From Candidatus Taenariivivens baikalensis (GTDB taxonomy: Bacteria > Omnitrophota > Omnitrophia > Omnitrophales > Aquincolibacteriaceae), in the NCBI GenBank assembly GCA_009691445.1, contig SICL01000008.1, forward strand, positions 1-63,939: a DNA stretch of 63,939 nt, written 5' to 3'. Positions 1-63,939 of the stretch are shown here, one piece after another. Positions within the stretch are counted from its first letter, which is position 1. Each line of letters starts with the position of its first letter. The position numbers and the translations under genes were made by a program. The notes beneath the pieces were generated by a model that was not told where the DNA came from, did no database searches, and worked only from the letters and a program-made list of their open reading frames with translations.

Positions 1-3000
1 ATGGATTTGCCACAGCCACACTTAACCTTACTTCGGAGCGGCGGGTGGATTTAGGATGACGATGACGAATGTTAGGGACAAGATGAATGAACCCTCCTCC
101 TTTTCGAACGACTGGGGTAACACCTAAGCTTGGTTTTGGTGAACGGTGAAAAAGCTGAAAGATAAAACCAGAAATGTTATACCAATAAAACCAGATCCCG
201 TAGAAAATCGGCACCAGGAAGGCCCACGCAAATACAAACATACCGACTTTCAATAAAGTAAAATGCGGCTGAAAAAGATTGTCTTCAAGCCTCTCAGCCA
301 GAATCGCTCCATTCTGCGGAACAACCTTCAGGGCTCTTAGATACTCGTGTGCAAAAGGATAGGATCCCTTCCAAAGATTTCTTACCCAGTGAAAAAAATT
401 ACCGGCGGGAGCATCCCAAAGCACATTTCCCAAGGCAGTTTCTGAAGGAAGAGAATACTGATCAATGATGTCGGCACACGCAGCAAGCAGCAGCCCCTTC
501 AATCCGGAGAATTCAGCGTCACTACGAATCACAATCACGAACCGGCCGCCTATTTCAAGAGGCCCTTCTCCATAAATCTTGACGATTTTCGTCCCATCGA
601 TTAACGCTTTCTGATCTTCTTCTGAAACAGAAAAACGAGCGCGATTCTCAAGAATGGTAAAGGCCCGGGGAACAAGCTGCCTCAGGGTTTCCAGGGACAA
701 TCGATACTGGAGAGGACTTTCCAATATATAAGGATCCAAATCCTGGGGAGGACTTTTTCCCCACGCGGCTTGCAAAGCATCTTCAAAACGTCTGAACCGA
801 TTCAACATTTCCGGATCATGAAAAATCCACTGGGCATAAAAATCACTTTCCGGAGATCTCTGATACCGGTTACTTGAAGACGGCTTTGCTTTCCAAACAT
901 ACGTATCCTGAAAAACAGAAGGGACCTTAAAAGGCGCTTGCTGAACTGCCGGAGTTACACTTTCCGGTTTCACCGCCGCGGGAAGATTGGTTTTCAGCAA
1001 TGATTGAGGAATGGGCAGAGTTGCACTTTTTTGAGGAACAGCTGCAGAGCTTGAAACCACTGCAATCGCAAGAATAAGCATTTTGATCAATGAAGGATTT
1101 CGCAGTTCGGATCTTGGAACAAGCAACTCCGCGTTAACCATCGTTGGAGTGGTTGAAGGTTTCAGGAGGTTTAAAATATTCTGTTCGGTGAGTTGATTGC
1201 GCGAATGAAGAAGCTTGAGGCCTGCAACGAACTGCTCAGCCTGGCGAAGCATAGTGCTAAGAGCATAGGGCATAGAGTTTTCAGACCCTTTGCTCCCCGC
1301 CTGCCGCTTCGCTTCGGCGGGCAGGTCTGCGCTTTGCTCTATGCTCAGCTCGTCAATGAATCTCGTGTATTCGTGGGCGTGAGTGAGTTCGTTCTTTGCG
1401 GCGAGGTCGCGGATGATTTGGTCTCTCCAGAGCTTCGCCAGTTGGAAGTTCGAAGTTGGAAGTTGGACGAGTTGATCTCCGTCTATCTCTTCTAACTTCG
1501 AACTTCTAACATCTAACTTCAGGAGTTGGTCGCGTGTTGCTCTCACAAACGCATCATAAAGATTCACTTTCCCGTCCTTCACCTCAAAATAATTCTTCCA
1601 CGACACATTGCCTTTCATGTGTTCACGGTAATTCGTTTGCTCCGGAATCGTCGTCATCTTCGGCGTAATGATTGCGTACGAGATTCCCTGGGCTTTGAGT
1701 TTTGCCGCGAGGCCCTGGGTGTGGAAACCGCCAGCTACAATAACCGTAGGCAGGAGGCCGTCGGCAGAAAGCAGTAAAGAAAATGCCTTTTCTCTGGATT
1801 CGGCATTACGGTAAAATGCTAAATGATCCTGGAAAGCAGAAAAATGAAAGCTGCTTACTGCCTTCTGCATACTGCTTACTGCTTTCACCTCTTCCCACTC
1901 TTCCCTCGTCAGCTCAAGCTTCACCAGTTTAGTGAGTAGCTGAAGCTGATGCGTTTGACGGTCAAGCTCGCGCTGTCCGGCATTTTCAAACAGCGATTCT
2001 TTGACGTCCTTGATATAAATTTCAAGTTCCCGGAATAATTCTGTCCCTTCAATCTGATTAAGCGTCTCTTCATGACTGACCCGTTTCAGGAGTTGATCCG
2101 ATACCTTCATGGAGAATCTCTGCTTCATATATAAAGCAAACGCTTGCGGGGTGATCTCGGAGGTGTTGAATTGCTGGAGTTTGGCGTGGAACTCCTGCAA
2201 GTCCATAGTCGACGGTCCATGGTCCACAGTTACAAGATCTTTGTTTTTTCTGCCGACTGTCGACTGCCGACTGTGGACTAAGCGCAAAGCGCGTTCTGCT
2301 TCCTTCGCAAGCTTTCTCACTTCAATAACAATTGCCGGACGGCTTTTCCCCTCTTCCTGCATTTCTTCCAAAAGAACCTGGAGCTGGGTTCCTTTTTCCG
2401 GCTCTCGAATTTTGGACAGAAGAAAAAGAACATCTTTCAGGTTCGCGTGATTTTCATGGAATGCTTCAAGGCCTTCATCTATGACAAGCAATGACTTGGG
2501 GTAGGCACTTTTCTTCTCTTCCCTCAGTGCTTCCTGCATACTGCTTACTGCCTTCTGAAGTTCTTCTTCCTTCCCCATCGCTTCTTGATAAAATCCCAAA
2601 CCAGCTTCGTAGAGAGGCCAGTCTTCCATACCTGAAAATTCAGCATGGTGCATGGGGCTCGGGGCATGGGAATTGACTCCTTGCTCCTTGCTCCCTGCTC
2701 CTTGCCTAAAAATCGCTGCCCCAGTCCCGCCCGTTAATTCCCCGCGATCGTAATATGCCTCAAACACTTCTCGCAATCTCTTTTGATTCGGAAAGCTCTG
2801 GAAGATTTGAGAATCCAGTTTCGAACTTGCCCCTTCCAGCTTCACACTCCGTACCCCGTACTCTGCGCTCAGGTACTCAATCAATTTCTCAATATTTCTC
2901 TGAGCCTCAGGGATTTCGTGTGCGTCTTGGATGAGGAAAATAGGAGCCCCTTCCTTACCATGGAAAATGTCCTGGATATGGCCCAAATTTTTCGGAACCT

Positions 3001-3151
3001 GAACCGTGGTAAGATTTGTAAGTATTTGGGTCCTGGAATTAAGGGACTCTGGAGATGCCTTTGCTGCGTAAAGAGACGGAAGTGTATTCTGGGAAAATGA
3101 AAGAGTGAATACAATCGCCCAGGCCGTTATTTTTTTGATAGGATTTTTCAT
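1..3151 (-). CDS. Large secreted/membrane protein with its 3' end beyond the window. It is absent from the supplied ORF track because it has no in-window stop. Tentative TIKI/ChaN/TraB-like domain.
   Basis: Manual minus-strand translation from the ATG at 3151-3149 stays open for 1050 codons to the window edge. It starts with a signal-like MKNPIKKITAWAIVFTLSFS. Two His motifs, IFLIQDAHEIPEAQRNIEKLIEYL and TVIVAGGFHTQGLAAKLKAQGISYAIITP, resemble the ChaN/TraB/TIKI superfamily. Hydrophobic segments LIKMLILAIAVVSS and VGMFVFAWAFLVPIFYGIWFYWY follow. The + strand here has only short shadow ORFs. Confidence 0.75.
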   Translation of the reverse strand, partial: MKNPIKKITAWAIVFTLSFSQNTLPSLYAAKASPESLNSRTQILTNLTTVQVPKNLGHIQDIFHGKEGAPIFLIQDAHEIPEAQRNIEKLIEYLSAEYGVRSVKLEGASSKLDSQIFQSFPNQKRLREVFEAYYDRGELTGGTGAAIFRQGAGSKEQGVNSHAPSPMHHAEFSGMEDWPLYEAGLGFYQEAMGKEEELQKAVSSMQEALREEKKSAYPKSLLVIDEGLEAFHENHANLKDVLFLLSKIREPEKGTQLQVLLEEMQEEGKSRPAIVIEVRKLAKEAERALRLVHSRQSTVGRKNKDLVTVDHGPSTMDLQEFHAKLQQFNTSEITPQAFALYMKQRFSMKVSDQLLKRVSHEETLNQIEGTELFRELEIYIKDVKESLFENAGQRELDRQTHQLQLLTKLVKLELTREEWEEVKAVSSMQKAVSSFHFSAFQDHLAFYRNAESREKAFSLLLSADGLLPTVIVAGGFHTQGLAAKLKAQGISYAIITPKMTTIPEQTNYREHMKGNVSWKNYFEVKDGKVNLYDAFVRATRDQLLKLDVRSSKLEEIDGDQLVQLPTSNFQLAKLWRDQIIRDLAAKNELTHAHEYTRFIDELSIEQSADLPAEAKRQAGSKGSENSMPYALSTMLRQAEQFVAGLKLLHSRNQLTEQNILNLLKPSTTPTMVNAELLVPRSELRNPSLIKMLILAIAVVSSSAAVPQKSATLPIPQSLLKTNLPAAVKPESVTPAVQQAPFKVPSVFQDTYVWKAKPSSSNRYQRSPESDFYAQWIFHDPEMLNRFRRFEDALQAAWGKSPPQDLDPYILESPLQYRLSLETLRQLVPRAFTILENRARFSVSEEDQKALIDGTKIVKIYGEGPLEIGGRFVIVIRSDAEFSGLKGLLLAACADIIDQYSLPSETALGNVLWDAPAGNFFHWVRNLWKGSYPFAHEYLRALKVVPQNGAILAERLEDNLFQPHFTLLKVGMFVFAWAFLVPIFYGIWFYWYNISGFIFQLFHRSPKPSLGVTPVVRKGGGFIHLVPNIRHRHPKSTRRSEVRLSVAVANP

Positions 3152-7573: not shown

Positions 7574-9838
7574 TTGCACTCACTGCCAAGACGGACACTC
7601 GCAGGCATTACCTCATTTCTTTTAGTTTTTCATTTTACTTTGGGAGGAATCCCGGCGCTTTCAGCGGCCCAGCCTGTCCTGAACCAAAATCAGAATCAAT
7701 ATTCACCCGAGAACAGTGTCTCTCCCTCTCCGGCTCCGGCGAGTCCGCAGCCCAAAGCGAGTTCCAACCCTTATCAAAATCCGGCTCAGGGGTTTGAGAA
7801 TCAGTCAGGAAAGGCCCTTTCCAAAGCCACCCCTGAACTCTCCCCCTTACCTTCTCCGAATCCGTCGCCAAGCGCAACACCAAGTTCTTCGGAAACGCCG
7901 GAGCCGGGGCCTTCGGTTAGCCCAAGTCCCGAATCTTCAGACGAAATAAAAATTCCAGCTCCTGTCAATATTGAGCCCTTGAATTTTGCACCGCCTCTTG
8001 CAGATTCAGTAAGCAGCACTGACTCATCAGCGTTAGCGATCGCAAAAGAAAATAATTCGTTGCAGGAAGCCGCTACTTCGTTATCTGTAATCTCACCAGC
8101 ACCCGTTCCCAGGGCTGCACCTCAAGTCGATTCCTCTGTTGCCGAGCTGAATGTATCGCCTGAAACACTGCCGTCGTTTGCAAAGAATCCTGATGATGTA
8201 AACACTTCGAGCCCGTTGCCGGAAAACGTGATTTCCCCAGATCCAGCTGGAAACCTGGATAAAAATTTGAATGTACCGGCGCCTCAAAGCAACCAAGGCT
8301 CCGCCGATCTTCCGGCTGAAGTACTTACGGCTTCTGCACCGCAAATACAGCAAACCGCGCAGAAAGCCGCAGCAGCCACAGTTGCAAAAATAGCAGCCTC
8401 CCCTGCTGAAGAGCCGGTGCCGTCGCTCAACCTGGCGCAAAAGGCACTCGACATTTTTTCTCCGAACACGATAAACAGCATAGCCGAAAATAAAACAGCC
8501 GCGGTTTCAGCAGAACAACAAAACCTCCAACCCTCCGCGAATCTTCCCGCGGAAGTACTCACGGCTTCTGCACCGCAGATGCAGCAGACCGCGCCTTACG
8601 AAGGGAAGGAGGCTGCGAACGCTGGAGCATTGAAGGTGAGCGCAGTGCCGCCACGCACCCTGAACGAGCCTGTTCCTTCATCGGGAGTTATTAGAAACAA
8701 TCAGGTAACCCAAGTAACCGCACCTTACACAGGGACGATCCCATTTTCACTTTTAAATATTGCTAAAGTTGACGTGGACTTAGCTAAGGCAAGAGAGAAG
8801 TTTAACGAATGGAAAAAAAATCAACCCAAAGAGAAACCCTCTCCAAAACCATCGCCGAATCCTTCACCATCACCGGATTCTTCACCTTCCCCTAGCACCA
8901 CACAACCCACGAAAGTGAAGGCTCTTGAGGGGGTAATCGGGGCACTCGTAAAGTGGGTTTTTAACAAATGGGAGTCATGGCATTCAACCATTCCACCTGA
9001 AAATAGATCGGATCCGCTGGATGACCTGGATTTGATAAGCGAAATTTATGCCCAGCTGCTTATTTCAAAAGAAGAAAATCGAGAGCGTAATTTCTGGATT
9101 GTTCAAGATCCAGACACTGGAAAACTGAGTTTGGTGGATGCGATGTCGGCGAGGACAGAAAACGAAGCCGAGTTTGATTTTTTTGATCTTCCGCCTAATA
9201 CGATTGCAGCCATCCACACTCATCCAGGAATAGGAGAAACTAGACCTAGAGGATCCAGTTTTTTGGATACAAATGCAAGTGTGTTGCATCCGTTTTTTCG
9301 TCAATACAGCGTTGATGAATTTGGGCTCAACTGGGTCAACGACGACGGAACCACCTGGAGCAGGGCTGAATTTGACAAGCTGAATCAGCCAGTGGACGAA
9401 CAAAGGGCAACACAAATTGCAGCACAATTTATTTCCAGTGATGAAAACAAGTCTGCCTTTAAAGCGAACGGCATTGTATCAGGGCAAGTGTCCACTTATA
9501 CCTCTCCGGATCAAGCGATTTTCAATTCTCTAAAAAACAAAAAAGTGCTCCCGGATAACCTGGTGAAAGCACTTGATGGGAAAAGTTTTAACACGGTTTA
9601 CTTTGAGCAGTATCCCGACTATTCAAAAATTGAAAAAAACGCTCCTGGTAAACCGGATGAACGGACGTTTGGAAGCGCTTGGATTTTTGTCGAAAAAGAC
9701 ACAGGGGAAATTCTGGGGAATTATTCGGGCATTTTTTACATGTTGTTCGGCAATTTCAACAACGGGCATGGTGGAGCGCCATATAAAAGCTCCACCAAGC
9801 CTGGTCTGATCCCAGAATCTTCGTCACCTTCACCGTAG
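7574..9838 (+). CDS. Secreted protein with a long Pro/Ser/Ala-rich region and a C-terminal JAB/MPN-like (DUF4329-like) HTHP domain
   Basis: The N-terminus LAGITSFLLVFHFTLGGIPALSAAQP is signal-like. Low-complexity PSP tracts follow, with an internal repeat ADLPAEVLTASAPQIQQTA / ANLPAEVLTASAPQMQQTA. The C-terminal AAIHTHPGIGETRPRGSSFLD resembles a JAMM HxH...SxxD motif. The start is a TTG, so it is uncertain. Confidence 0.6.
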   Translation: MHSLPRRTLAGITSFLLVFHFTLGGIPALSAAQPVLNQNQNQYSPENSVSPSPAPASPQPKASSNPYQNPAQGFENQSGKALSKATPELSPLPSPNPSPSATPSSSETPEPGPSVSPSPESSDEIKIPAPVNIEPLNFAPPLADSVSSTDSSALAIAKENNSLQEAATSLSVISPAPVPRAAPQVDSSVAELNVSPETLPSFAKNPDDVNTSSPLPENVISPDPAGNLDKNLNVPAPQSNQGSADLPAEVLTASAPQIQQTAQKAAAATVAKIAASPAEEPVPSLNLAQKALDIFSPNTINSIAENKTAAVSAEQQNLQPSANLPAEVLTASAPQMQQTAPYEGKEAANAGALKVSAVPPRTLNEPVPSSGVIRNNQVTQVTAPYTGTIPFSLLNIAKVDVDLAKAREKFNEWKKNQPKEKPSPKPSPNPSPSPDSSPSPSTTQPTKVKALEGVIGALVKWVFNKWESWHSTIPPENRSDPLDDLDLISEIYAQLLISKEENRERNFWIVQDPDTGKLSLVDAMSARTENEAEFDFFDLPPNTIAAIHTHPGIGETRPRGSSFLDTNASVLHPFFRQYSVDEFGLNWVNDDGTTWSRAEFDKLNQPVDEQRATQIAAQFISSDENKSAFKANGIVSGQVSTYTSPDQAIFNSLKNKKVLPDNLVKALDGKSFNTVYFEQYPDYSKIEKNAPGKPDERTFGSAWIFVEKDTGEILGNYSGIFYMLFGNFNNGHGGAPYKSSTKPGLIPESSSPSP

Positions 9839-43499: not shown

Positions 43500-46400
43500 C
43501 TAAACAGGAATTCCAGTCCAGTCATCAAAAATGTACTCTCGATGATTCTTCGATGAGGGCGGTTCTAAACTTACATTATTCCATGTGTGAATGATAGTGC
43601 CATTAGAACGTTGAGTTGCAGTTCCCTTTTCAATAAAAAAAACTTTCCCGTATGAGAGCACATAGTATTCTCTCTTATAAATAGCTCCGTAAGGATCATA
43701 AAAAAAACTGAAATAAGTAGTGACACGATTGTTTATTTCAAAGAAACGATCCAAACGATAGCTTCCATCTTGCGGAGAAAAAATGATTTTTCCAGAGAAA
43801 TCCGGGCCATCAGAAAAAATCAAGGGATGATCTATGAGCGTATCCGGTGAACCCGAAAACTCGATTTGAGTGTAACTGGAATTATAAATAAATAAATTCG
43901 TATCGGTCTTTTGACCTGAATTCAGGTCAAAATGTTCGAGGCTTGTTTTACGAGAAATAGGGTAGGGTGTCAGTGAAATATCTCTATTAAGCTGTTCTAT
44001 CAATTGATAGCTTATCTTTTCGGTGAGTTTACCTGATGATTGGTAGTGATAAAAATCGTACCGGATCATTTTACCTGAAGAATCGAAGTGTTCTGTTTTG
44101 ATTTTTAGTCCGGCTACAAAATAATCCTTCGATATTATAACCCCTTGTCCATCATAATGATCCAGTTTCGTCAGACTCTTATTTAATTCAGCCCCGTGCA
44201 AAATGCCAAAATTATTTTCAATGATTTGTTGTTCACCGGTGGCGATAGTTTCTATAGTCACAGTTGTGATAAGAAGGTCATCTGCAGTGTAAGTGAAATG
44301 ATAGCGAAGACTTCGAGACGTCCATTCCATCATGGTGATATTTTTATGTGCATCCATCTGAATGGGAATCTCCCCCACTTTTTGATACCCTTTATAGATA
44401 GGCATAGACAAGTCGCTTTGAGCCCCATTATGACTGGCAAGAATTTCCATCATAGAAAGCAAGGTCCTGAGGCCAATAAACTGACTTTGAGTTATTGCTT
44501 TTTGCAACCAACCATTAAATGCGGCCTCCGTATTAGCCATAAACTGTCTGCCACCAAACTCTGCCACGCTCTCAGTATAGAAACTATTTGCGTAGTCGGT
44601 AGGCCGATCCTCAGGATTGCCTAAACTAAAAAGCTGACTTTGAATTCCACCGAAAGTGGCAAAATTCTTCTGATAAAGATATTGAAATTCTCCCCAGGTA
44701 CGAACAATGGTCAAGATATGCCACATTTCATGATGAAAACGGTCTGCAGACATCGTGTCTATGCCATTATAAATAGTAATTGAACCTGGTCGACCAACCA
44801 CGGCTGTGCCTTCGCCACAACAGGAAGACGCCTCGACGATAATACCAAATTCGGATACCAGATCAGCCGGGTAGAGACTAAGGTAATTATAGATTTTATT
44901 TGCTTCTTCAGCCGTTACATTTCCAGAGCCAGAGGACCATAGCAATATTCCAAAATCATCAAATATTTCTCTGCGTTTATCATTCGCGGGCATTTTCAAT
45001 TCAGACATAACCGTTTGAACATCCTTGTCATTACGGGCAATTCCTCGAATCATAGTTATAAGAGAATAATAATTTTTAAACTTATCCGGATAAATCATGT
45101 CTGGCCGAGAAAAAATTCTATCGTAATGGAAATCATAATCAAAGAAATCGGCCCATTGCTTGACAATCCATGATCTTTCAGGCCCATTGTCAGGAAGCGT
45201 ATTCTTTAATCTCTGCAAAATAACATAAAGATCCTTAATATAGGCAGCGCCTAAGTATGGCGCCTCAATGCTACAAACAAAAGAGCAAAATTGATCCCAA
45301 TCATTCTCTTTAAGCACATTGAAAATATTTTGGGCCATTTTTTGCGGATCAACATTCACAAGGGCAGGATGAAATAAAAAAGAGGCATAAAGATCGGATA
45401 AATCATACGTTGTCTTTCTATCTCTGGAACCAGATTTCGGCAAGATGCTATAATAAGAGTCCCAATTTCGAAAAACAGGCGAAAGTAATTTGGCGAGAAC
45501 ACTCATTACTTCTTTCGAGTAATTCACTTTCCAACTTGCGCCTATTTGTTTTTTTTCCCATAAGTCGATATCATGATCCAAAGAAAGCAAAGTATCTTTT
45601 GCTGGTTTTTCGGGATGAATAACTAATTCTCGGAGGGTCTTCATAAATTGAGACTGCCCTGCTGGATCCGTCAGGTCATTAGCACCTACTACATCCGAAA
45701 ATTTAATTGTTTTTTCGGTTTTGGAATAAAGACCGATTGACATCAAACTGTTATGCTCTAGCGTAATGGTAAAATAACTATCTTCTGATGATAGAAAAGT
45801 AGGCGATAAAGTTCCTTGCATCTTTCTTCCATCAGAGAGGAGCACGTTAAAATTAGTCGCCACTGAGACTTTGCCTAGCAATGATTTCATTTCGGAAGAA
45901 TTGACCAATTGCATCCACTGTGCAGAACTCAATTCATAAACACGGCTATCGATCTTCTTTAAAACCTGTTCAATGCTTACTTTGCCCTGATCATCAATCA
46001 TGGTTTGACGGTCCACGCGGATCGTTTCAGAAGCCGTGGTGATGACAATTTCAGAATCAGTGTTTTGAATATTTCTGAGTTCATCGTGTGGAATGGGAAG
46101 TTTGGCTTTCGCACCACTTTCCCAGTTCACAAGATAAAGATAGGACGCAGATTCGGCTGCCGTTTGCTGGACAACTTCCGCCACGACCGTTTTTGCATCT
46201 TTGGAAACATAGACACGCGCGGCACTTTGCACTCCGGGCTTATTCGATAAACTTTCCGGATCCCAGGAAATAAGACTCTGGGCTTTGATGCCTTTTCCTG
46301 TTACCTGGTAAACCATGACATCGCGGGATGTGGTCTGGACATAAAAAACCTGACCTGCGGGACCTCCCGGAACAAAAACCGCATCTTCCGGAATACTGAT

Positions 46401-46769
46401 TTGCTGTTCAGGGGTACGTCTCAACACTGAGACTGTCGCAGGATCCACGACGATGGGTACATTCAAAGGTTTAGACGTAGTAGACTGCGCAGTGGTAATG
46501 GATTTTCTAACCGGTGATCTGGGAGGATCCAAGGATGAAGGTAAAGAACCGGGTAAGGATTCCAACGGTTTTTCTGCTGTCATCCGGCTTACTGCTTCTT
46601 CAACGGGCGTTGCAGGAATTTGACGATTAACCGGTGAATCTAAACTATCTGTAGGGTCGGCGTACAAAACCGGAGAGGACGGCATCCATCCAGAACATAA
46701 AAAAAGAACGGCCGTAAAAGCAGCTGTTTTTAATTTTAATTTTTTTGTGTTCATATAAGTGAAACTCAC
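43500..46769 (-). CDS. Large secreted protein with an HExxH (HEMWH) motif and YD-like C-terminal repeats; low-GC island cargo
   Basis: 1089 aa. Signal-like N-terminus KTAAFTAVLFLCSGWMPSSPVLYA, then DRFHHEMWHILTI. C-terminal stretches HYDGQGVIISKDYF and GKMIRYDFYHYQSSGKLTEKISY resemble YD repeats. Confidence 0.7.
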   Translation of the reverse strand: MSFTYMNTKKLKLKTAAFTAVLFLCSGWMPSSPVLYADPTDSLDSPVNRQIPATPVEEAVSRMTAEKPLESLPGSLPSSLDPPRSPVRKSITTAQSTTSKPLNVPIVVDPATVSVLRRTPEQQISIPEDAVFVPGGPAGQVFYVQTTSRDVMVYQVTGKGIKAQSLISWDPESLSNKPGVQSAARVYVSKDAKTVVAEVVQQTAAESASYLYLVNWESGAKAKLPIPHDELRNIQNTDSEIVITTASETIRVDRQTMIDDQGKVSIEQVLKKIDSRVYELSSAQWMQLVNSSEMKSLLGKVSVATNFNVLLSDGRKMQGTLSPTFLSSEDSYFTITLEHNSLMSIGLYSKTEKTIKFSDVVGANDLTDPAGQSQFMKTLRELVIHPEKPAKDTLLSLDHDIDLWEKKQIGASWKVNYSKEVMSVLAKLLSPVFRNWDSYYSILPKSGSRDRKTTYDLSDLYASFLFHPALVNVDPQKMAQNIFNVLKENDWDQFCSFVCSIEAPYLGAAYIKDLYVILQRLKNTLPDNGPERSWIVKQWADFFDYDFHYDRIFSRPDMIYPDKFKNYYSLITMIRGIARNDKDVQTVMSELKMPANDKRREIFDDFGILLWSSGSGNVTAEEANKIYNYLSLYPADLVSEFGIIVEASSCCGEGTAVVGRPGSITIYNGIDTMSADRFHHEMWHILTIVRTWGEFQYLYQKNFATFGGIQSQLFSLGNPEDRPTDYANSFYTESVAEFGGRQFMANTEAAFNGWLQKAITQSQFIGLRTLLSMMEILASHNGAQSDLSMPIYKGYQKVGEIPIQMDAHKNITMMEWTSRSLRYHFTYTADDLLITTVTIETIATGEQQIIENNFGILHGAELNKSLTKLDHYDGQGVIISKDYFVAGLKIKTEHFDSSGKMIRYDFYHYQSSGKLTEKISYQLIEQLNRDISLTPYPISRKTSLEHFDLNSGQKTDTNLFIYNSSYTQIEFSGSPDTLIDHPLIFSDGPDFSGKIIFSPQDGSYRLDRFFEINNRVTTYFSFFYDPYGAIYKREYYVLSYGKVFFIEKGTATQRSNGTIIHTWNNVSLEPPSSKNHREYIFDDWTGIPV

Positions 46770-55242: not shown

Positions 55243-56163
55243 CTACCGATTGAGATGCTCAAAGCTCTCCAAAATACTGTCACAAATAAAATCTTCCAGC
55301 CGCGAAAAATCATTTTGAAGCTGTGATTGATTCAAATAAAGAATATAAAACCGTCTTTTTTCCTGACGAATCATGGCCGGCGGAAGATCCCGGGAAAGCA
55401 GCATTCCGTGCAATAAAAGCCTTCCGATTCTTCCATTCCCATCGGAAAAAGGATGGATCTGTTCAAAAATGCTGTGGATGAAGGCCGCATGAGCAATCAC
55501 ATCTTTTCTTTTTTCAGAAATCTTCACAAATAAGTCTTTCATGAGCGCGGGAACTTTTTCTGGGTTGGCCGTCGGAACATTGGCCCCCGTAATCCGTACT
55601 CCATGATTGCGGTATCGTCCCGCATCGTGCTGAATGCTATTCAGTAAAATTCCGTGAAGTTTAAGAACAAGTTCCTCGTCAACCTTTTCCTTTCCTTCCA
55701 GATGATGAAATAAATAGTGGAGAGCTGTTTGATGATTTTTTGCTTCCAATTGTTCCGTCAATGTTTTATCCGGTAAAGCCGCCCCTTCAAATAAAATAGC
55801 GGCGGTTTCAGGTTCCGTAAGCGTGCTCCCCTCAATACGGTTTGTGTGAAAAGTCAGCGAAAGCACAAACTGGTCATAAATATCTTTTTGATTCAGAATC
55901 GTTCTCAGAACTCCCGAATATTTTTTCGATAGCCTTTCGATCTCCTGCTTCTTGGCTTCCAGGACGTTTGAAGGAATAACGTTTTGCCCCGTACACCTGA
56001 GAAAAGTTTCATCGATTTTCTCCCGCGCTTTTTTCCGGGGCAAAGAGCGCCCGTTGATCCAGCTATTTAAGGTAGGGAAAGACACACCCAGCTCCGCCGC
56101 CAGTTTTTCCTGGCTTTTACCCCGGAACTTTTGAATGAGTCTGAGCTTCTCCTGGAGGGTCAC
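55243..56163 (-). CDS. XRE-type HTH fused to a Fic domain
   Basis: The N-terminal QEKLAAELGVSFPTLNSWINGRSLP is an HTH; HPFSDGNGRIGRLL is the Fic motif. Confidence 0.9.
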   Translation of the reverse strand: MTLQEKLRLIQKFRGKSQEKLAAELGVSFPTLNSWINGRSLPRKKAREKIDETFLRCTGQNVIPSNVLEAKKQEIERLSKKYSGVLRTILNQKDIYDQFVLSLTFHTNRIEGSTLTEPETAAILFEGAALPDKTLTEQLEAKNHQTALHYLFHHLEGKEKVDEELVLKLHGILLNSIQHDAGRYRNHGVRITGANVPTANPEKVPALMKDLFVKISEKRKDVIAHAAFIHSIFEQIHPFSDGNGRIGRLLLHGMLLSRDLPPAMIRQEKRRFYILYLNQSQLQNDFSRLEDFICDSILESFEHLNR

Positions 56164-56255: not shown

Positions 56256-59200
56256 TTACGCAGCGGAGGAAGTCTGAAGGGTGGAGTTGAAGAGGGTTTG
56301 CAGAGTTTCGGCCAAGCCTTGAAGCGCGGGAGTATTCAGATACATTAAATTACCCATTTGCTGAAGCACGGGGCCGTATTGTTCTGTCAGTTTTTCTGCT
56401 TTCATTTCGCGCGAATACGCGGCCGTAATCCAGTGCCCTGCTCTCATAATCCTGGAACTTGGATAAGAGGGGCGAACCACCAGAGCTGCAGAAAGATTAA
56501 GACTCTGAAGAATCGTCTCGCGGCCGGTCACCACAAAATAACGGGAAAGATCAGGTTCATTGCCGGATGCTTTGTTCCATAATTTCATTTGTCCAAGCAC
56601 CTGGGCGGAAAGTTTTTGGATTTCGTGATTGATGTTCGCGGTTCTCAGAATCACGCGAATCGTAAAACGATTCTTGAGATTGATTTGATTTTGCGTGGCC
56701 CACTGGGCTTCCTGTCTCACGATTTCCACCGCACGCGCTTGAAGTTCTTTGAGTTTCGCAGAATCCGCCAGTACAACAATTGTTTTCCCTTGGTGCGCGC
56801 TCGCCCAAATCGCACGATTGGCTTGAATCTCTTCCGGTGAAGGCAGGGCATCTTCATAAATATCCGCCACCCAGCCGGGAGTATCCGAAACCAGATCCTT
56901 CTTCTGAAGACTCTGGATCCAGTCCGGCGTCTCGGATTTGTTCAAGGCCTGAACCTGATCCAGTAATGCTCGCTGGTTTTCGTATCCCGTAATCCGGACA
57001 TCAATAAACCTTCCCGCCACCTCCACCACCTGGATCACAGGAAACGCATTCTCCGCGTTTTTAAGCGAATCCAAATCAAAACCAAGCTTTGCCGTGAGCC
57101 TTACGTGGTTTGGATGAGCGGATGACCCGCGTCCTTGTGTGCCGGTTAACTCATCCCGCCTCATCTCGGAACGGGCGGCTTCAAAAGCAATCCGTTTTTC
57201 CGAAACTTCCGTGGCAAAATAATCACGATACTCGGTGTGTGTTTTTAAAGCGATGGCCAAGATGTCTCTTACCTGCGTCCATCGAGAAAGAATCACGCTC
57301 TTGCTCTCTAAAATTTCATGGAGGCTTGTTGCGTAAGCAAATAGGGTATCGAGATCGTCAACGTTCGTGATTCCTCCAGGATATTGGGTAAGATAGATCA
57401 CGGAACTCAAAAGCGTTTCTGGTTTACTCGATCGGTCTGCAGTTAAAAGATAAAGCGTTTCATCCATCGAAGAACCCTCAATAATTCCTTTCATGTAGCG
57501 CTTCAAATAATCCGCATTCTGCCAATTTCGTGTGCGCTCCTCCAAGTCTTGCTGCGCTTCCGTGCCTCTCACCTCGGAGCGAGTCATGGATTCAATTCTT
57601 CTGAGACTTTCAGCCAGCACGGTCGACATCGGCGCCTTGGAATCTTGATGAAGATCAAACTGCCATTGGCCAAGGCCTTGAATACTTTTGCTTACTTCCC
57701 GTTTTAAAGATTCGTACTGGGATAGCGCCAGAGGAATCGATTGATAAAATTCAGCAAAAATAAATTGAAGTCCTTTTTTCGCCTCTTCAATCGAGCCTGT
57801 ATTCACCGACACAGATCGCAAGGCTGGAAGCACCGTCTGAAGAATGCGGCCCGTTTCGTTCAACCGCAGTTGATGACCCAGATAGTTGTAACGACGTTTA
57901 ATCCCGCCCCGCTTCAAAGCAATTTGCTTGAGGCGTTCATCCAAAAATGATTTCACTTCATTCATCTGCTGACGAGCGCCCTCAAGCTGTCCGCTCTTGA
58001 TTTGCGCCAGTGCAAGATCGAGCGACGCACGCGCTTTTGTTTTCTGAGACGTCTTTCCCCACCGCATCCCGCCTTTAGAATTTTGAATCTGCTCCAGGTG
58101 ATAAACAATCTGGTCGCGGCGATAATCTGAAAGCGTGCTCTCTTTGGAACCCAGCATCTCTTCAATAAAATCGAGCGCATTGCGGTGAAATGCAACCGTA
58201 CCGTAATCTTCTTCCTGACTCACTAAAATATGAACTTGCTGCCTGACGGCCGTAGGTAAATCAGCCAGCTTCATTTCCTTCTGTCTCAGGACGTAACCGC
58301 GAATGCTGGCGTCTTTGACCCAAAAGTTTTGCTGGATCGTGACTTGTTTTTTCTCGCCAATTTGCGTCGGGGCCTTGACCTTGATCCGGAAAAGCGAATA
58401 GTCGTAAATTTTCTCAGTGACACCATCCAAACTGGTTACGGGAATTTTCTTCACGCCCGCTTCTTCAATTCTCCGCCGCCAGCTCCAGGCATATTCTTCC
58501 CCGAGCCGCTGATAGAGCTTCCCCGCTGAAACAAGAACAGCCAGAAGCTGATTCCGGGTGAAATCGCTTTTCTGAACTTTGTCCCCATTTTCAATCGCCG
58601 CCAGCATCTTCGAGGCTTTTAGCAGCTGGGCTTTTAAACGCGCCTTGATGAAAAATACCGTGCCTCGGTTTAAGAATTCCAACCGATCCGTGTTTTTCTC
58701 CAAATACGCCTTCTCGAGCTTGGGAATCAGCGCGTGATATTCTTTTTCATAATCAGCGGATTTTTTTTGCAACTCTTCTGCGGAAAGACCCTCTGAACTC
58801 TTGAAGGTCCTATTTTGCTTGGCTTGAATAGCCTCTGAGAGATTGGGATCGGACTTGATGAGTTGGGCAAACCGTTTGATCTGGGGAAGATATTCCTGCG
58901 TCACACTTTGATCAATCTTCGCTGCATCATCGTCGCTTAATTCACCGCTCGCCTTCTGTTGTTTTCGGTAAGTAAACGCGGTATTGATATCGCGATTCCA
59001 CCTGTGAAGCGTTGTCGAGCGTGCCCGTGCTGTTTCCATCCGTTTGAAATAAGCGCGGATCTGACTCTGAATTACCGCAGCCGCTGCACCCGGCGCTGTG
59101 CGAAGTTCCGAGCGAGTGGGTTTACTCTGAGAAACACGGCTGGACAAATTCCTGACTTCCGCGCGAGGCCTGGGATCTGCCCCCCGCAATTCGGGACGGA

Positions 59201-62200
59201 ACCGAACAATTTTGAGCGAATCTATGGGAGTCCTAAGCACATCACGAATCGATGTTCCGCTCTCTATTTTTCTCACCTCGGAACGGCTCCGCCGCCCAAG
59301 GGCTGCCAGCTGAGCTGCTCGAACCACTCTTAGCGTTTCCGCTAATTCCCTATCCCTCCCGTGAACCTGGTTCATTTCTGAAATTTTATCCCTTTCCTCT
59401 TTAATATTCCAAAGGAACTTCTGAATGATCATCGAGGTTTCTCCCGCTGATCGGGAACGCTTGTTATAACGTTTTAAAGATGCCTGAGCTTGTCTAAAAT
59501 AAGTTTCTGCCTTCCGATAGAAATCGAGTTTGTCCGTGTCACTCGGTGACTTTCTGGCCGCATATAAATAACGGGAGGCGATCGACTTTTGAACAAACCC
59601 TTCCCGGATTTGATATTTGTCATAAAACGGATTTGACTGGGGTAAATGCTGCAGGGCCTGTTCGTAGAAGGATAATGCTTTTTGATAAGAGTCAATCAGC
59701 CCATTTCTAATTAAATCAAGCAACGCTCCCGGAGCAGCGCTGCGAGAAACAGCATTAGCTTCTTTGAAATGGATTCTCCCCATCTCCCCCTCAATCATGC
59801 CCTGGGCTGCCCTTCCGGTTTCGGATTTCGAAAAAATATTTTGAGAGCGCATTAAATCCAAGGCCTGAGTTAAAAATTCTGGCTCTACGCTGGGAAAATT
59901 TGCTCTTTCTTCGAGTGAAACATGAGCCTCGAGTTTCGCGGCATGATCTTCTACTTGAGTAAGCTGGTCCGCCGGAATTTTGGATTTTGCAAGCAGATCC
60001 AGAACCTGAGTCACCGTCCCGGAAACAGTTCCTCCGATTTCTGAGACTTGAAAAGCTCTCAGCAAATCAATGGCCGCCTGAATATCCGCCCCCTTTCTCA
60101 CCTCGGAACGAACATGACGGGAAATAATGATCGTTTCCAGAGCCTTCGAGTGCGATCCTGCAGAACGAAGCAGCTTTTTTCCCTGGGGAAGCTGTATCAC
60201 AACATCTTTGCCATTTCCCCAGAGAAACACATTTTTCGCCCCGCGCTCAATGAGATCAGCAATCAAATCACGAAGTACAGCACCACGGTAATGTGTTTTT
60301 CCCGGAACGATGCCAGCAAGGATTTTTCCCTTGGTCGTGAAACCAAAAAAAGTGTGTGGATGAATGCCGGGAAGCAGTTTAATAACCATCTTTTTTTCTG
60401 CTTCACGAATGAAGTATTGGCCGGGCTTGAGGACATTACCGGATTTCGCATCAGCCAGTTTCTGATATTCCCAATTTTCGAAAACCCTGTCGCGCTCTTC
60501 GGGAGTGATCCCAAATGTATCCAGAGGACTTAAATCCAGTTCAATCGCTTCTCCGCGCAAAGATTTTTGAACCAGCTCATGATTACGGTAAATCTCGCCC
60601 TTTCGGTCACTCACTCCCAAATGAATCTGTTTGGTTCCCCGCTCAAACATGGGCAAACGAAAAAGATGGCGAAGATCATCAAATTGCTTCGCGACTTTAT
60701 TCAAATTGTCCCGTCCATTTTTAACAATGTGCTGGCCGTAAATGGCATATCTAATTTTTTTAGCAATATTTTTTCCCGATTCGTCAAAAACTCCTATTTT
60801 GCCTTTCTTGTTTTTGAACCAAAGTTTTTGGATGCTCATCGTGCCGTCGGTCCAAATCACCAGCATATCCCGCGGCTTTAAAGCATCTCTTTGATAATGG
60901 AATAGTTTTCCATCCACAACACCCGCAAACCAATCATTGAATCCAAGATTGCCGTTGGGAAGCACGGCAAGAATTTCCTCATCCGGATGAAGCCGCTTAT
61001 GCCGTTTTAAAAATTCTCTACGGCTGATTCTCACATTGGCAATCTGGGGCGATGCGAAATTGATAGACTCATGATCCCAGTAAATCTTATTATTCACGCG
61101 ATCAAAATGAATCCGTCCGACACCGTCACGAAAAGCTTCTTCGACAACCTGCAAACTAACGCGGACCTGATCCGATTTAAAAATCCTCACCACCGGTTTC
61201 TCGATTTTGAATTCTAATTCCGTCTCACGCTTCATCCTCATCTCCGAACGAATGGTCTCCGTGTTTACCGCCCAAGAATCTTTATCTGTCATCTTCGCCA
61301 TTTCTTTTAAATCAAACGGAACTTTCTGAACCCGGATTTCTGAGCGGGGTTTGCGTTGAAAAGGTCCGGAATCGCCACTGTCGCCATCTCTCGTCGAGCG
61401 GTTCATTTCCTTCCATAATTCATAAACCTCGGGGTCGTCGGTCGTAGAATTTTGAATGGTGGTTCGATTGATAAGCGCTTTCGGATCTTGACTGACACCC
61501 TCCTGGGCATAAATACTACTAGTGATCTTGGCAAGTGGACCCAAGTGCATCCAGGAAGCTGTAACAAGGGGCGCCATGCTTGCCGCACCCAGCGCAATGA
61601 TCGGACCTTTTGAAGCAAAGCCTTTATGATTGTTATAAGCTGGACCAAGAATCACAATGAGATCAGGATTCCTGTTCACAAAACGCTTTGCGAGCATCCC
61701 TGTCAAATTTTGATTGGCTAAAAGATAGCGAAAATGTTTCGGCGCTTTTGTCACTCCATGCTCCGTCAATGCCTGTTGAATGACAAACCACGCATTCGGT
61801 AAAATCGTTTCCAGCTTGCGAAGAGAAATGGGCACCAAAACTGATTCGGGTTTTGCGCTTTCAGAAGGCCTCTTCAAAACTTCATCTTGAAGTCCATTGA
61901 GTGTGTCTAATAATGCTCTTTGGATCTCTGCGCTGGCATCTTGAATCTTGCTGCCCGTATAAGTCGTTTTCGTGCTCAATCTTGCCTGATCTTCCGCCAC
62001 AATCTTATTTTGCGCATAAAGGAACCAACCCGGATTTGCTCCCTTCTCCAGATAAATTTCCGCATTCGATATAATACCGCCGCTTATCTGCTGGCTGCCG
62101 CTCAGCATAATCACGGGCCCATAGGAAATAACGCTGTCTTGATTTCGATAATTAGGTCCCAAAATAACAACCGTCGTAGGATCGGTGTTGATAATGCTGC

Positions 62201-63939
62201 GAGAATTGCTTCCCACGAATCCTTGGTTGAAGAGGACGTATTGATACTTCATCGAATCTGCTTTTAGAAACTTCTCTTTTACTGTCTTCAGAGGGTCTCT
62301 CAAACCCAACATCTTTGCCGCAATCTTATAAGGCCTTCCACTCACATTGTTTTTGATTTTTATACGGAGACTTAAATTTCCAATCCTGAGCGGCATCGCT
62401 TCCTCTGAACCTGGTATCCGTGATCCATCCCCCCTCACTTCTGAGCGGTGCTTTGATGCCCGGCCACCTTTCGGGTGCCTGTCACCTACTTCTTTGGATC
62501 GTTTTTTTTCGTTAGCAAGACGTCTTTGGGCCTTAAGCGCTTTCACTTCTTCCGTCAAATTAAACTCTTTGACCCAATTCGAGACAGAAGCCACGGTAAC
62601 CGACTTACCCTTATAAATAATCTGCTTGGCCGTTTCCGTCAGGCTTCCCCAATTCGATCTGAGCAAGTCTAGGAGCCGCTTTTTGGTGGGATTTTTTCTG
62701 GGCTGTCCCGTCCAACCCCGGAAGCCCTTCGTAGCAGCACGAATCTCTTTTGCTTCTTTTAGTAATCCTGCCTTCTTAATGCGCCGCGAGGCTGTGCTCT
62801 TATCCACGCCAAGTTCGTCCGCAATTTTCTGCACAATCGCGTGATGTTTAACCAGTAAGCCTTCAAGCCGCGCGCGTTCTTTATCTCCAAAATCTTTCGT
62901 TGTTTCACTCCTCACTTCCGAGCGCGAGACAGGCGTAAAAAGAAAAATATTTTCCAGGGCATCGGGTGTCATCTGGATCCGCTCAAAACCCAGATCCTGC
63001 ATCAGTAAAATAAATAGCGGCATAAAATGCGCCGCAATAAATAACTGATTAACAACGGCTTGAAGACTTATTTTTTCGGAGGATTCTTTCGAGGCATATC
63101 GTGCCAACCCATCCACCAAGGCTGATTCGCTCCCCGATAAATTACTGTTGAGTAATTCCGGCAGATGGTGATAGGAGCCCACCTCAATCCATTCGATCGG
63201 GATATTCCTATTTTTGACTGTTGGTCCTCTAAGCATCGCCATATTTTCTCCTCGTCTTTCGAACCGGAAAAAAGCAGAATCATTAATTTGGACATAAACA
63301 AAATCTTGAGTGTAATCCAGATGAACGGCAACATGGATGGGCAAAAACGGCTGCGTTTTTTGTTTTTCGATCACCCAATCTCTCGGCGGATATTGACTAA
63401 AAAATTGGCGAGAAAATATGATGTACCCCATCACCATCTGATACTCCATAGAATCTACTCCGGCTTGATCCAACCTTTTGCGGGCCCCGTCCTGTTGAAT
63501 GCGATCCATAGGATCACCCGATTGATTGGAGACATAGTAACGATCCTTCGCATTTTTATCATCCATCACCCAGACCCGGGTTCCCTTAACCTTAGAAGAA
63601 TCACCCGACGGTGGATCGGCCGCGACTTCAATAGCCGCATCATGGGTGAAAATAATTTCCTGGGGTTTCGGCCAAGGAATATCAAAATGCCGGCGCGGCT
63701 TAGGATCAAGCAAGCCCCTCACCTCCGAGCGGTTAAATTGCTTGATGGTAGGTGAAAAAATCCCTGGAGAGGCCTTCTCGTATTGAGCGTATTTTGCTTG
63801 AACCATCGCGGTTAATTTTCCGCGGTGTTCAGAATTCTGAAGATCAAAATGATTTTCAAGGACGGCTTCTTCGATCATCTTTCCAAAACCAAGCAGCCAG
63901 CCCTTCACATCATTTTGATCAAGAATGTGATTCAAATCG
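56256..63939 (-). CDS. Giant multi-module protein (at least 2559 aa, frame open to the window edge) punctuated by R-S-E-V-R-type motifs
   Basis: Single uninterrupted minus-strand frame. The first in-window start candidate is a TTG at 63935, but the upstream codon is sense. It contains HTH-like stretches, an internal duplication and 12 RxE[VILM]R motifs. Confidence 0.8.
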   Translation of the reverse strand, partial: DLNHILDQNDVKGWLLGFGKMIEEAVLENHFDLQNSEHRGKLTAMVQAKYAQYEKASPGIFSPTIKQFNRSEVRGLLDPKPRRHFDIPWPKPQEIIFTHDAAIEVAADPPSGDSSKVKGTRVWVMDDKNAKDRYYVSNQSGDPMDRIQQDGARKRLDQAGVDSMEYQMVMGYIIFSRQFFSQYPPRDWVIEKQKTQPFLPIHVAVHLDYTQDFVYVQINDSAFFRFERRGENMAMLRGPTVKNRNIPIEWIEVGSYHHLPELLNSNLSGSESALVDGLARYASKESSEKISLQAVVNQLFIAAHFMPLFILLMQDLGFERIQMTPDALENIFLFTPVSRSEVRSETTKDFGDKERARLEGLLVKHHAIVQKIADELGVDKSTASRRIKKAGLLKEAKEIRAATKGFRGWTGQPRKNPTKKRLLDLLRSNWGSLTETAKQIIYKGKSVTVASVSNWVKEFNLTEEVKALKAQRRLANEKKRSKEVGDRHPKGGRASKHRSEVRGDGSRIPGSEEAMPLRIGNLSLRIKIKNNVSGRPYKIAAKMLGLRDPLKTVKEKFLKADSMKYQYVLFNQGFVGSNSRSIINTDPTTVVILGPNYRNQDSVISYGPVIMLSGSQQISGGIISNAEIYLEKGANPGWFLYAQNKIVAEDQARLSTKTTYTGSKIQDASAEIQRALLDTLNGLQDEVLKRPSESAKPESVLVPISLRKLETILPNAWFVIQQALTEHGVTKAPKHFRYLLANQNLTGMLAKRFVNRNPDLIVILGPAYNNHKGFASKGPIIALGAASMAPLVTASWMHLGPLAKITSSIYAQEGVSQDPKALINRTTIQNSTTDDPEVYELWKEMNRSTRDGDSGDSGPFQRKPRSEIRVQKVPFDLKEMAKMTDKDSWAVNTETIRSEMRMKRETELEFKIEKPVVRIFKSDQVRVSLQVVEEAFRDGVGRIHFDRVNNKIYWDHESINFASPQIANVRISRREFLKRHKRLHPDEEILAVLPNGNLGFNDWFAGVVDGKLFHYQRDALKPRDMLVIWTDGTMSIQKLWFKNKKGKIGVFDESGKNIAKKIRYAIYGQHIVKNGRDNLNKVAKQFDDLRHLFRLPMFERGTKQIHLGVSDRKGEIYRNHELVQKSLRGEAIELDLSPLDTFGITPEERDRVFENWEYQKLADAKSGNVLKPGQYFIREAEKKMVIKLLPGIHPHTFFGFTTKGKILAGIVPGKTHYRGAVLRDLIADLIERGAKNVFLWGNGKDVVIQLPQGKKLLRSAGSHSKALETIIISRHVRSEVRKGADIQAAIDLLRAFQVSEIGGTVSGTVTQVLDLLAKSKIPADQLTQVEDHAAKLEAHVSLEERANFPSVEPEFLTQALDLMRSQNIFSKSETGRAAQGMIEGEMGRIHFKEANAVSRSAAPGALLDLIRNGLIDSYQKALSFYEQALQHLPQSNPFYDKYQIREGFVQKSIASRYLYAARKSPSDTDKLDFYRKAETYFRQAQASLKRYNKRSRSAGETSMIIQKFLWNIKEERDKISEMNQVHGRDRELAETLRVVRAAQLAALGRRSRSEVRKIESGTSIRDVLRTPIDSLKIVRFRPELRGADPRPRAEVRNLSSRVSQSKPTRSELRTAPGAAAAVIQSQIRAYFKRMETARARSTTLHRWNRDINTAFTYRKQQKASGELSDDDAAKIDQSVTQEYLPQIKRFAQLIKSDPNLSEAIQAKQNRTFKSSEGLSAEELQKKSADYEKEYHALIPKLEKAYLEKNTDRLEFLNRGTVFFIKARLKAQLLKASKMLAAIENGDKVQKSDFTRNQLLAVLVSAGKLYQRLGEEYAWSWRRRIEEAGVKKIPVTSLDGVTEKIYDYSLFRIKVKAPTQIGEKKQVTIQQNFWVKDASIRGYVLRQKEMKLADLPTAVRQQVHILVSQEEDYGTVAFHRNALDFIEEMLGSKESTLSDYRRDQIVYHLEQIQNSKGGMRWGKTSQKTKARASLDLALAQIKSGQLEGARQQMNEVKSFLDERLKQIALKRGGIKRRYNYLGHQLRLNETGRILQTVLPALRSVSVNTGSIEEAKKGLQFIFAEFYQSIPLALSQYESLKREVSKSIQGLGQWQFDLHQDSKAPMSTVLAESLRRIESMTRSEVRGTEAQQDLEERTRNWQNADYLKRYMKGIIEGSSMDETLYLLTADRSSKPETLLSSVIYLTQYPGGITNVDDLDTLFAYATSLHEILESKSVILSRWTQVRDILAIALKTHTEYRDYFATEVSEKRIAFEAARSEMRRDELTGTQGRGSSAHPNHVRLTAKLGFDLDSLKNAENAFPVIQVVEVAGRFIDVRITGYENQRALLDQVQALNKSETPDWIQSLQKKDLVSDTPGWVADIYEDALPSPEEIQANRAIWASAHQGKTIVVLADSAKLKELQARAVEIVRQEAQWATQNQINLKNRFTIRVILRTANINHEIQKLSAQVLGQMKLWNKASGNEPDLSRYFVVTGRETILQSLNLSAALVVRPSYPSSRIMRAGHWITAAYSREMKAEKLTEQYGPVLQQMGNLMYLNTPALQGLAETLQTLFNSTLQTSSAA

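Follow-up and report, generated by a model that had tools for sequence, protein, structure and literature searches.

Why should a single bacterial open reading frame (ORF) return, again and again, to the same five residues? The question arises from the window, i.e., the whole 63,939-nucleotide (nt) stretch analysed here (contig SICL01000008.1 of Candidatus Taenariivivens baikalensis), at the right end of which lies a giant ORF on the minus strand. An earlier note had recognised a degenerate motif, R-[SAP]-E-[VILM]-R, in 12 places in this ORF and had offered three interpretations: a processing site, a modification site or a linker between modules. The core that these share, a selected peptide at module boundaries, was borne out; the evidence does not choose among the three, and a role in recombination did not figure among them. 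The punctuation is genuine and strongly non-random; it is under selection, occurs widely in one part of the Omnitrophota and is undescribed in the searchable literature. It is strongly supported as a delimiter between modules, lying in flexible linker just outside self-contained folding units. The features of the giant ORF are given below; the residue numbers in the earlier note, which were counted from the TTG codon at 63935, are one lower than those used here, and its nucleotide coordinates for all 12 sites were right.

56256..63938, minus strand: giant modular protein, C-terminal 2560 amino acids (aa); N-terminus beyond the window, stop codon at 56256-56258, end ...TLQTSSAA
63717..63731, minus strand: motif 1, RSEVR (aa 70), CGCTCGGAGGTGAGG; left breakpoint of the module missing from contig L001 (see below)
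62925..63716, minus strand: module 2 (aa 75-338), no known function, one hydrophobic stretch at aa 295-313; absent from Logan contig L001
62910..62924, minus strand: motif 2, RSEVR (aa 339); right breakpoint of the L001 variant
62448..62909, minus strand: module 3 (aa 344-497), weak helix-turn-helix (HTH) matches
62433..62447, minus strand: motif 3, RSEVR (aa 498); the alignment with homologue P0040 begins exactly here in both proteins
61347..62432, minus strand: module 4 (aa 503-864), no known function
61332..61346, minus strand: motif 4, RSEIR (aa 865); predicted local distance difference test score (pLDDT) <50
61236..61250, minus strand: motif 5, RSEMR (aa 897); 27 aa past motif 4, low pLDDT
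60111..61235, minus strand: module 5 (aa 902-1276), phosphodiester glycosidase (NAGPA/DUF2233) fold by Pfam, AlphaFold and Foldseek
60096..60110, minus strand: motif 6, RSEVR (aa 1277); directly past the last strand of module 5
59286..60095, minus strand: module 6 (aa 1282-1551), no known function
59100..59285, minus strand: cluster of four motif copies with spacers of 24, 6 and 12 aa (RSEVR 59271-59285, RPELR 59184-59198, RAEVR 59151-59165, RSELR 59100-59114)
57582..59099, minus strand: module 7 (aa 1614-2119), no known function, one weak TPR match
57567..57581, minus strand: motif 11, RSEVR (aa 2120)
57174..57566, minus strand: module 8 (aa 2125-2255), no known function
57159..57173, minus strand: motif 12, RSEMR (aa 2256)
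56259..57158, minus strand: C-terminal module (aa 2261-2560), with the family-typical ...SSAA tail

The ORF was open for 2560 codons and ran off the right edge of the window, and the motif classes were also those reported (six RSEVR, two RSEMR, one RSEIR and the clustered RPELR, RAEVR and RSELR). The frequency of the motif could not be attributed to composition: 12 copies were observed against 0.044 expected (0.004 for RSEVR alone), and 5000 shuffles of the giant ORF never contained more than two. A six-frame scan of the window located the motif in just one other real ORF, a second large protein (P2) with two copies, which the earlier note had overlooked; there were no copies in the ~40 other long ORFs of the window. 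The inter-motif segments had no mutual BLASTP similarity, in agreement with the claim that flanks and content are unrelated. Besides the NAGPA-fold enzyme and the weak HTH module, the visible ORF contained at least six more modules, all unrelated. The two HTH-like stretches that had been reported in module 3 were recovered at low significance (HTH_23, E = 4e-4; HTH_20, E = 7e-4; ArsR-like, E = 0.02), all below the curated Pfam cut-offs.

Several comparisons placed the motif at the edges of modules. Module 5 was identified as NAGPA by Pfam (E = 5.5e-4), and its predicted structure matched NAGPA phosphodiester glycosidases by Foldseek (E = 1.6e-7, probability 1.00). In the AlphaFold model, which used a 24-sequence alignment, residues 909-1275 of the giant had pLDDT >90 (whole model: mean pLDDT 86.9, predicted template modelling score 0.82), while the motifs at residues 865, 897 and 1277 of the giant, and at residue 680 of P2, fell below ~55, beside domains with pLDDT >90. 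Across seven proteins, none of 53 motifs lay inside a Pfam domain; burial of the motifs within folded domains, which the earlier note had considered capable of overturning its reading, was thus not observed. Among 14 motif-bearing homologues with the NAGPA-like module, the motif stood between -1 and +16 aa from the extrapolated C-terminal edge of that module in 10, and in five it was no more than 13 aa away from the N-terminal edge. Stand-alone NAGPA-like homologues (400-460 aa) end at the position where the giants have the motif. Similarly, when residues 498-864 of the giant were aligned with P0040, the alignment started at a motif in both; the homologues of module 4 comprise residues 2807-3145 of P0040, a stretch that likewise has motifs on both sides, and several short proteins that stand alone. 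When different motif-bearing giants were compared by BLAST, the alignments crossed a motif in only 39 cases, against 206 expected from random placement (the minimum in 500 trials was 118), and 34% of alignments between giants ended within 30 aa of a motif against an expectation of 15%. These comparisons showed that the inter-motif stretch is a folding unit, the relatives of which stand alone or adjoin different neighbours in other giants.

A variant contig was consistent with the same boundaries. Logan contig L001 (SRR8561390) is without the 269-aa module between motifs 1 and 2 (807 nt) and has a single copy of the motif at the junction. Comparison of L001 1-340 with window positions 62860-63939 identified nine substitutions, spread from ~90 nt before to 65 nt after the junction motif; L001 was otherwise identical to the window over the remaining 10.8 kb. 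The junction shares only 15 nt, with one mismatch, and a k=31 assembler should therefore not have been able to make the join unaided. Since the differences cluster around the junction, L001 represents an allele that has diverged or else a paralogous copy located upstream; under both alternatives, the module boundary coincides with the motif. Among cluster members at least 90% identical, there were no module insertions or deletions, only differences of truncation.

The distribution of the motif was examined in homologues collected by a full HMMER scan with residues 498-1697, which returned 134 proteins; family counts cover 141 sequences, in which individual members are denoted by numbers such as P0040. 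Almost all of the 134 matched a single module, the stretch from RSEMR-897 to RSEVR-1277, and this NAGPA-like module had no fixed place within its host proteins, which were as long as 7768 aa. Other searches were negative: the whole giant ORF produced zero matches in a word-indexed homologue search and zero in a sequence search of the PDB, and no relatives were found for its visible N-terminal 800 aa in the genome collection or for its first 500 aa in metagenomes. A metagenome scan with a narrow alignment (A4) recovered six loci, one of them motif-bearing. In the 141 proteins there were 117 copies of the family-wide form, RSE[VMLIAT]R, against 1.6 expected, concentrated in ~20 proteins at 1.5-3.5 per 1000 aa; in the motif-rich giants (e.g., P0022, P0096, P0074 and P0040), RSExR was the commonest 4- or 5-mer of all, and related motif-bearing proteins reached 7560 aa. 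Motifs were spaced at a median of 301 aa (interquartile range 186-415), with 15 of 143 spacings at 40 aa or less. The homologues carried GT1, APH, CMP kinase, PRK, methyltransferase, GDPD, HD, HAD, GNAT and HEAT domains, and nearly all source-named homologues of both large proteins were labelled Candidatus Omnitrophica or Omnitrophota. At the loci around pdxJ in seven other Omnitrophota metagenome-assembled genomes (MAGs), there was no giant gene and the motif was at background (0.02 per 1000 aa).

The composition of the motif varied in a structured way. Position 2 was Ser in 117 copies of the homologue set and Ala in 18, showing that the Pro and Ala copies of the window ORF, the significance of which had been missed, belong to a variant class found elsewhere too. 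The fourth residue was Met in 32 copies, Val in 23, Ala in 23, Leu in 21, Thr in 14 and Ile in four, and each protein favoured its own: RSEMR in P0096, RSEAR in P0022, RSEVR in the window giant and P0147. Outside the five residues the flanks were unconserved, with an excess only of Ser, Thr, Pro, Gly and Gln. Directly after the last Arg, Pro was depleted (one observed, seven expected) and small residues were enriched, which fits a protease site, although as a sequence pattern it is no proof of one. Decayed copies (ARSEMP and ARSEMH) were seen beside intact RSEMR in P0074. Among members without RSExR, P0015 (3370 aa, Candidatus Omnitrophica) contained SSLG[R/H/E] four times, twice directly past its NAGPA-like module; judging from such sequences, other lineages may use a different delimiter. 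P0014 (5912 aa) and P0012 (7768 aa), also motif-free, contained repeated transmembrane modules (...SQLVLPLWNWV...; ...GGIMxWLR...) and repeated units of several hundred residues. P0014 is labelled Chlamydiota in NCBI, so either the module family extends beyond Omnitrophota or this bin is mislabelled.

The second large protein of the window repeated the arrangement on a smaller scale:

2..3151, minus strand: P2, second family member; signal-peptide-like start, conserved N-terminal domain, RSELR, then unrelated sequence, running off the left end of the window
1100..1114, minus strand: RSELR closing the N-terminal domain of P2 (aa 680); pLDDT ~30
26..40, minus strand: RSEVR in P2 (about aa 1038), CGCTCCGAAGTAAGG

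Many giants begin with the N-terminal domain seen in P2, which is about 500-660 aa in length (window 1082-3151). Among 18 P2 orthologues (21-45% identity), a consensus RSExR was found at the end of the shared domain, in the same alignment column, with unrelated sequence beyond; Arg680 was kept in at least 90% of these. The domain has invariant residues (His78, Glu106, Arg453 and Gly474-Gly475-x-His477) and was modelled by AlphaFold with a pLDDT of 77. Its weak Foldseek matches included the erythromycin-esterase-like structures 3b55, 2rad and 6xcs, and it might, on this modelled likeness, be a hydrolase or protease of the erythromycin-esterase superfamily; nothing significant was returned by Foldseek with this domain, the E-values being at least 0.17 overall and at least 0.58 for the esterase-like matches. 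Directly past RSELR in P2 (window 1040-1099, minus strand) the sequence, NPSLIKMLILAIAVVSSSAAV, resembled a signal peptide, as though the module that follows had formerly been secreted as a protein of its own. A segment of this kind was rejected as a general follower of the motif, being present after five of 168 motifs against 2% at random (P = 0.13). In exact-protein look-ups, short-contig matches near the left end of the window stopped at the start of P2.

The earlier note had held that the peptide was conserved and the DNA was not. Conservation of the peptide and synonymous variation among its copies were both upheld; the statement concerning DNA was not, because copies within a gene were more alike than the peptide requires. 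In the 12 copies of the giant, the first Arg was always CGY (12/12; background 0.47), the last Arg was AGR in 9/12 (background 0.20) and Val was GTG in 6/7. Eight copies in the giant ORF and one in P2 matched CGYTCNGARRTGAGR with at most one mismatch, when 0.34 were expected. Mean pairwise nucleotide identity among copies was 0.727 in the giant (expected 0.614 +/- 0.02) and 0.81 in P0147 (expected 0.628 +/- 0.023), where the expectation was obtained by re-coding the copies with the codon usage of the gene itself; none of 20000 simulations reached the value of either gene. The same test in a third gene (L089) gave P = 0.018. Codon identity at the four invariant residues was 0.495 within genes against 0.374 between them (permutation P = 0.0016). 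Codons also differed across species, the last Arg being AGR in most window copies and CGN in P0003 and P0147. All motif copies were on one strand. Therefore, two effects can be separated: codons differ across species with the amino acids unchanged, so the peptide is under selection, and the excess likeness within genes means that copies share ancestry or are homogenised.

These observations can be accommodated in one scheme. R-S-E-(V/M/L/I/A/T)-R would be recognised by a sequence-specific endopeptidase, the gene for which probably lies in another part of the genome; this enzyme would cut the precursor into separate proteins, and the giant gene would so resemble an operon that lacks stop codons. 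The 15 nt that encode the motif would probably provide an in-frame seam for the deletion, duplication and exchange of modules, and through events at such seams a version of the motif peculiar to one gene would spread along that gene. That the motif is a module delimiter both cut by a protease, as in a polyprotein, and serving as such a seam is favoured here with a confidence that falls a little short of even. The more specific proposal, in which a cellular polyprotein would have RSE-x-R as its cleavage code and a dedicated protease, and the coding sequence of the motif would double as a cassette joint, is more tentative.

A number of points weigh against this scheme. Cleavage is something we infer from sequence, and Pfam and NCBIfam scans identified no protease domain in the visible parts of the giant ORF and P2. 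No module was specific to motif-bearing proteins: those common to most of them, i.e., the N-terminal domain and the NAGPA-like module, both occur in motif-free members also, and a search for a protease module restricted to motif-bearing proteins found none. The N-terminal domain of P2 was set aside as a candidate Tiki/TraB/erythromycin-esterase-like hydrolase, given that its Foldseek matches were non-significant. RSExR is missing altogether from many family members of giant size (P0012, P0014, P0015, P0071 and others), and processing at this motif is therefore no general requirement of the architecture. A few copies, judged by eye from the sequences, seem to be situated in likely helices near C-termini (e.g., in P0005). 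Instead of a deletion allele, L001 could represent a paralogue that the assembler had merged. Finally, the uniformity of motif DNA within genes and the fourth residue favoured by each are predicted equally by a purely recombinational origin.

Among the alternatives, an uncut giant in which the motif is a docking or modification site within linkers (for a chaperone, a secretion or assembly factor or a scaffold, or with its Ser phosphorylated or AMPylated) is rather unlikely. The positional evidence that suits cleavage suits this also, namely disordered linkers and selection on the peptide; tandem copies 6-30 aa apart, such as contribute to the 15 close spacings noted above, would allow multivalent binding, related giants contain kinase-like modules, and an HTH-Fic gene, of the AMPylase type, lies directly downstream of the giant gene. 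However, Ala takes the place of Ser in 18 of ~160 copies, as Pro does in one copy of the window ORF, and such changes would abolish a modification of Ser; the Fic gene is not kept beside homologues on other contigs, and docking would not need a motif at nearly every module edge. It is improbable, moreover, that the motif is a recombination seam and nothing else, whether a 15-nt microhomology or a recombinase site, with the peptide a mere by-product. The excess identity of copies within genes, the gene-specific codon patterns, the fourth residue favoured by each protein, the difference between L001 and the window from motif to motif, and the occurrence of one module in different neighbourhoods would all follow from it; but between species the codons change and R, S, E and R stay, which is a sign of peptide selection, and third codon positions vary even within a gene. 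RecA-dependent recombination usually needs more than 15 nt. No inverted-repeat structure was apparent by eye in the motif sequences, all copies share one strand, and no integrase or recombinase was present among ~20 window proteins scanned.

A signal in the RNA is very hard to reconcile with the data. According to this explanation GGAGGTGA, within CGCTCGGAGGTGAGG, would act as a Shine-Dalgarno-like pause, or the fourth codon (GTG, ATG or TTG) as an internal start; indeed, GGAGGTGA occurs in three window copies and 9/12 fourth codons are of this type. Other copies and other species lack any Shine-Dalgarno-like string (P0147 has CGC TCC GAA GTG CGG and P0003 has ...GAA CTT CGC), Ala or Thr, which have no start codons, occupy the fourth position in 37 of 120 RSExR copies, and the spacing from GGAG to the start would be zero; the reading was rejected on the codon data of other species. 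Least credible of all, to the point of being negligible, is that the motif reflects chance or composition, or the ORF an assembly artefact. The ORF is indeed cut by the end of its contig, and all three assemblies break within ~80 nt of window position 63939, which suggests repeated modules upstream. Yet the same ORF was present at 99.9% identity in contigs of ENA ERZ1305449 and Logan SRR8561390, so that three independent assemblies agree and the concern over an artefact raised in the earlier note is answered; the same punctuation occurs in many unrelated contigs, and the count of 12 far exceeds its expectation of 0.044.

The closest known counterparts are the giant multi-enzyme proteins of Omnitrophota, to which the organism itself belongs: the best match to its PdxJ, among one genome per GTDB species, was a Candidatus Omnitrophota MAG (64% identity), with several further Omnitrophota among the best matches. 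Like these giant proteins, the window ORF and its relatives are very long ORFs stringing together unrelated enzymes (glycosyltransferases, methyltransferases, kinases, HD, radical SAM), with many enzyme domains tiling one polypeptide and assemblies that fragment inside the gene. The classes described are the 'Archaeovorin' type (West-Roberts et al. 2023, bioRxiv 10.1101/2023.11.21.568195) and the 'multi-enzyme metabolic cluster' (Nielsen & Lui 2026, bioRxiv 10.64898/2026.06.07.730766), with length criteria of >30,000 aa in the former preprint and >10,000 aa in the latter; the window ORF ends at the contig edge at 2560 aa. Cleavage of the products is raised or left open in both preprints (10.1101/2023.11.21.568195; 10.64898/2026.06.07.730766), and West-Roberts et al. 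(10.1101/2023.11.21.568195) did not split proteins for structure prediction because cleavage points were not known. The present case differs in that neither preprint (10.1101/2023.11.21.568195; 10.64898/2026.06.07.730766) mentions a recurring delimiter motif. It differs also in having no C39, S8 or SecA-like domains in the visible part of the ORF. Searches of the literature for RSEVR, RSEMR and RSELR returned only unrelated matches (alginate lyase sequences and acronyms), and the statement that no described family has such punctuation therefore holds for the searchable literature.

Resemblances to other modular systems, considered here by analogy, indicate a possible mode of working and not family membership. 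The same short site between units, in accessible linkers predicted to be unstructured, recalls processed polyproteins in general. In MARTX toxins, effector modules are freed by an internal cysteine protease domain (CPD) that cuts at Leu in linkers; these too are single giant ORFs with swappable modules and unstructured linkers containing the cut sites, and their module set varies between strains by recombination. However, no CPD and no glycine-rich repeats were detected by Pfam and NCBIfam in the visible 2560 aa, the motif here has five strict residues rather than a single Leu, and the modules are ordinary enzymes of metabolism or regulation, not effectors aimed at eukaryotes. Viral polyproteins (cut by picornavirus 3C, potyvirus NIa or coronavirus Mpro) have a short conserved site between unrelated mature proteins, with small residues favoured past the site and, at times, small spacer peptides; here, by contrast, the gene is on a cellular chromosome and no cognate protease for the candidate site was recognised in the two large proteins. 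In polymorphic toxins (CdiA with VENN, Rhs with PxxxxDPxGL), a short peptide separates a conserved N-terminal region from variable C-terminal modules, and its coding sequence is thought to aid module exchange. The P2 family has exactly this layout of N-terminal domain, delimiter and variable sequence, although there are many delimiters per protein in the present family, the modules are enzymes and not toxins, and no immunity-type small gene was seen to follow. Integrons provide an evolutionary analogy only: in both, a repeat stands between unrelated cassettes and is more alike within one genome than across genomes, but the repeat here is 15 nt, in frame, translated and on one strand, without a palindromic attC (~60-140 bp in integrons), and no integrase was found among the window proteins scanned, a subset of the ORFs.

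The remainder of the window resembled an ordinary bacterial chromosome, with cdaA, ybbR, pdxJ, proS, a serA-type dehydrogenase and histidine kinases. Downstream of the giant gene are the HTH-Fic gene, a 481-aa protein of no known function, a hexapeptide transferase and a ZIP transporter:

55243-56163, minus strand: gene for an HTH_3 and Fic/DOC protein, 93 nt downstream of the giant ORF

A 754-aa protein (7574-9838, plus strand) has a signal peptide and long, Pro/Ser-rich regions of low complexity; a JAMM-like HTHPG...SSFLD was noticed by eye near its C-terminus, with no Pfam match, and it is weakly similar to a 1089-aa protein of no known function at 43500-46769. The C-termini of the large proteins also had a common character. 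Of 88 related proteins >800 aa, 54 ended in Ala and 30 in Ala-Ala (...SSAA, ...ARAA, ...LASA), usually preceded by a hydrophobic, helix-like tail, the C-terminus of the giant ORF (56256-56300) included. From sequence, this Ala-rich end looks like a family-wide C-terminal signal, either a degron of the ssrA/ClpX kind or a signal for secretion or sorting. In P0022, P0005 and P0003, a delimiter-like motif was situated 10-20 aa ahead of the Ala-rich C-terminus.

Giant genes of Omnitrophota extend to ~147,000 codons, and whether their products act as one chain or are cut is a current puzzle; a strict five-residue motif at module edges is a first concrete candidate for a cut site and makes the question of cleavage experimentally testable. 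An immediate use is that splitting giants at the motif yields units fit for structure prediction and annotation, as worked for the NAGPA-fold module. That each gene has its own DNA version of the motif suggests a way in which giant genes grow and reshuffle. If the proposed scheme is true, dozens of ordinary enzymes would in some Omnitrophota come from a single translation product, and modules would move in frame between giant genes.

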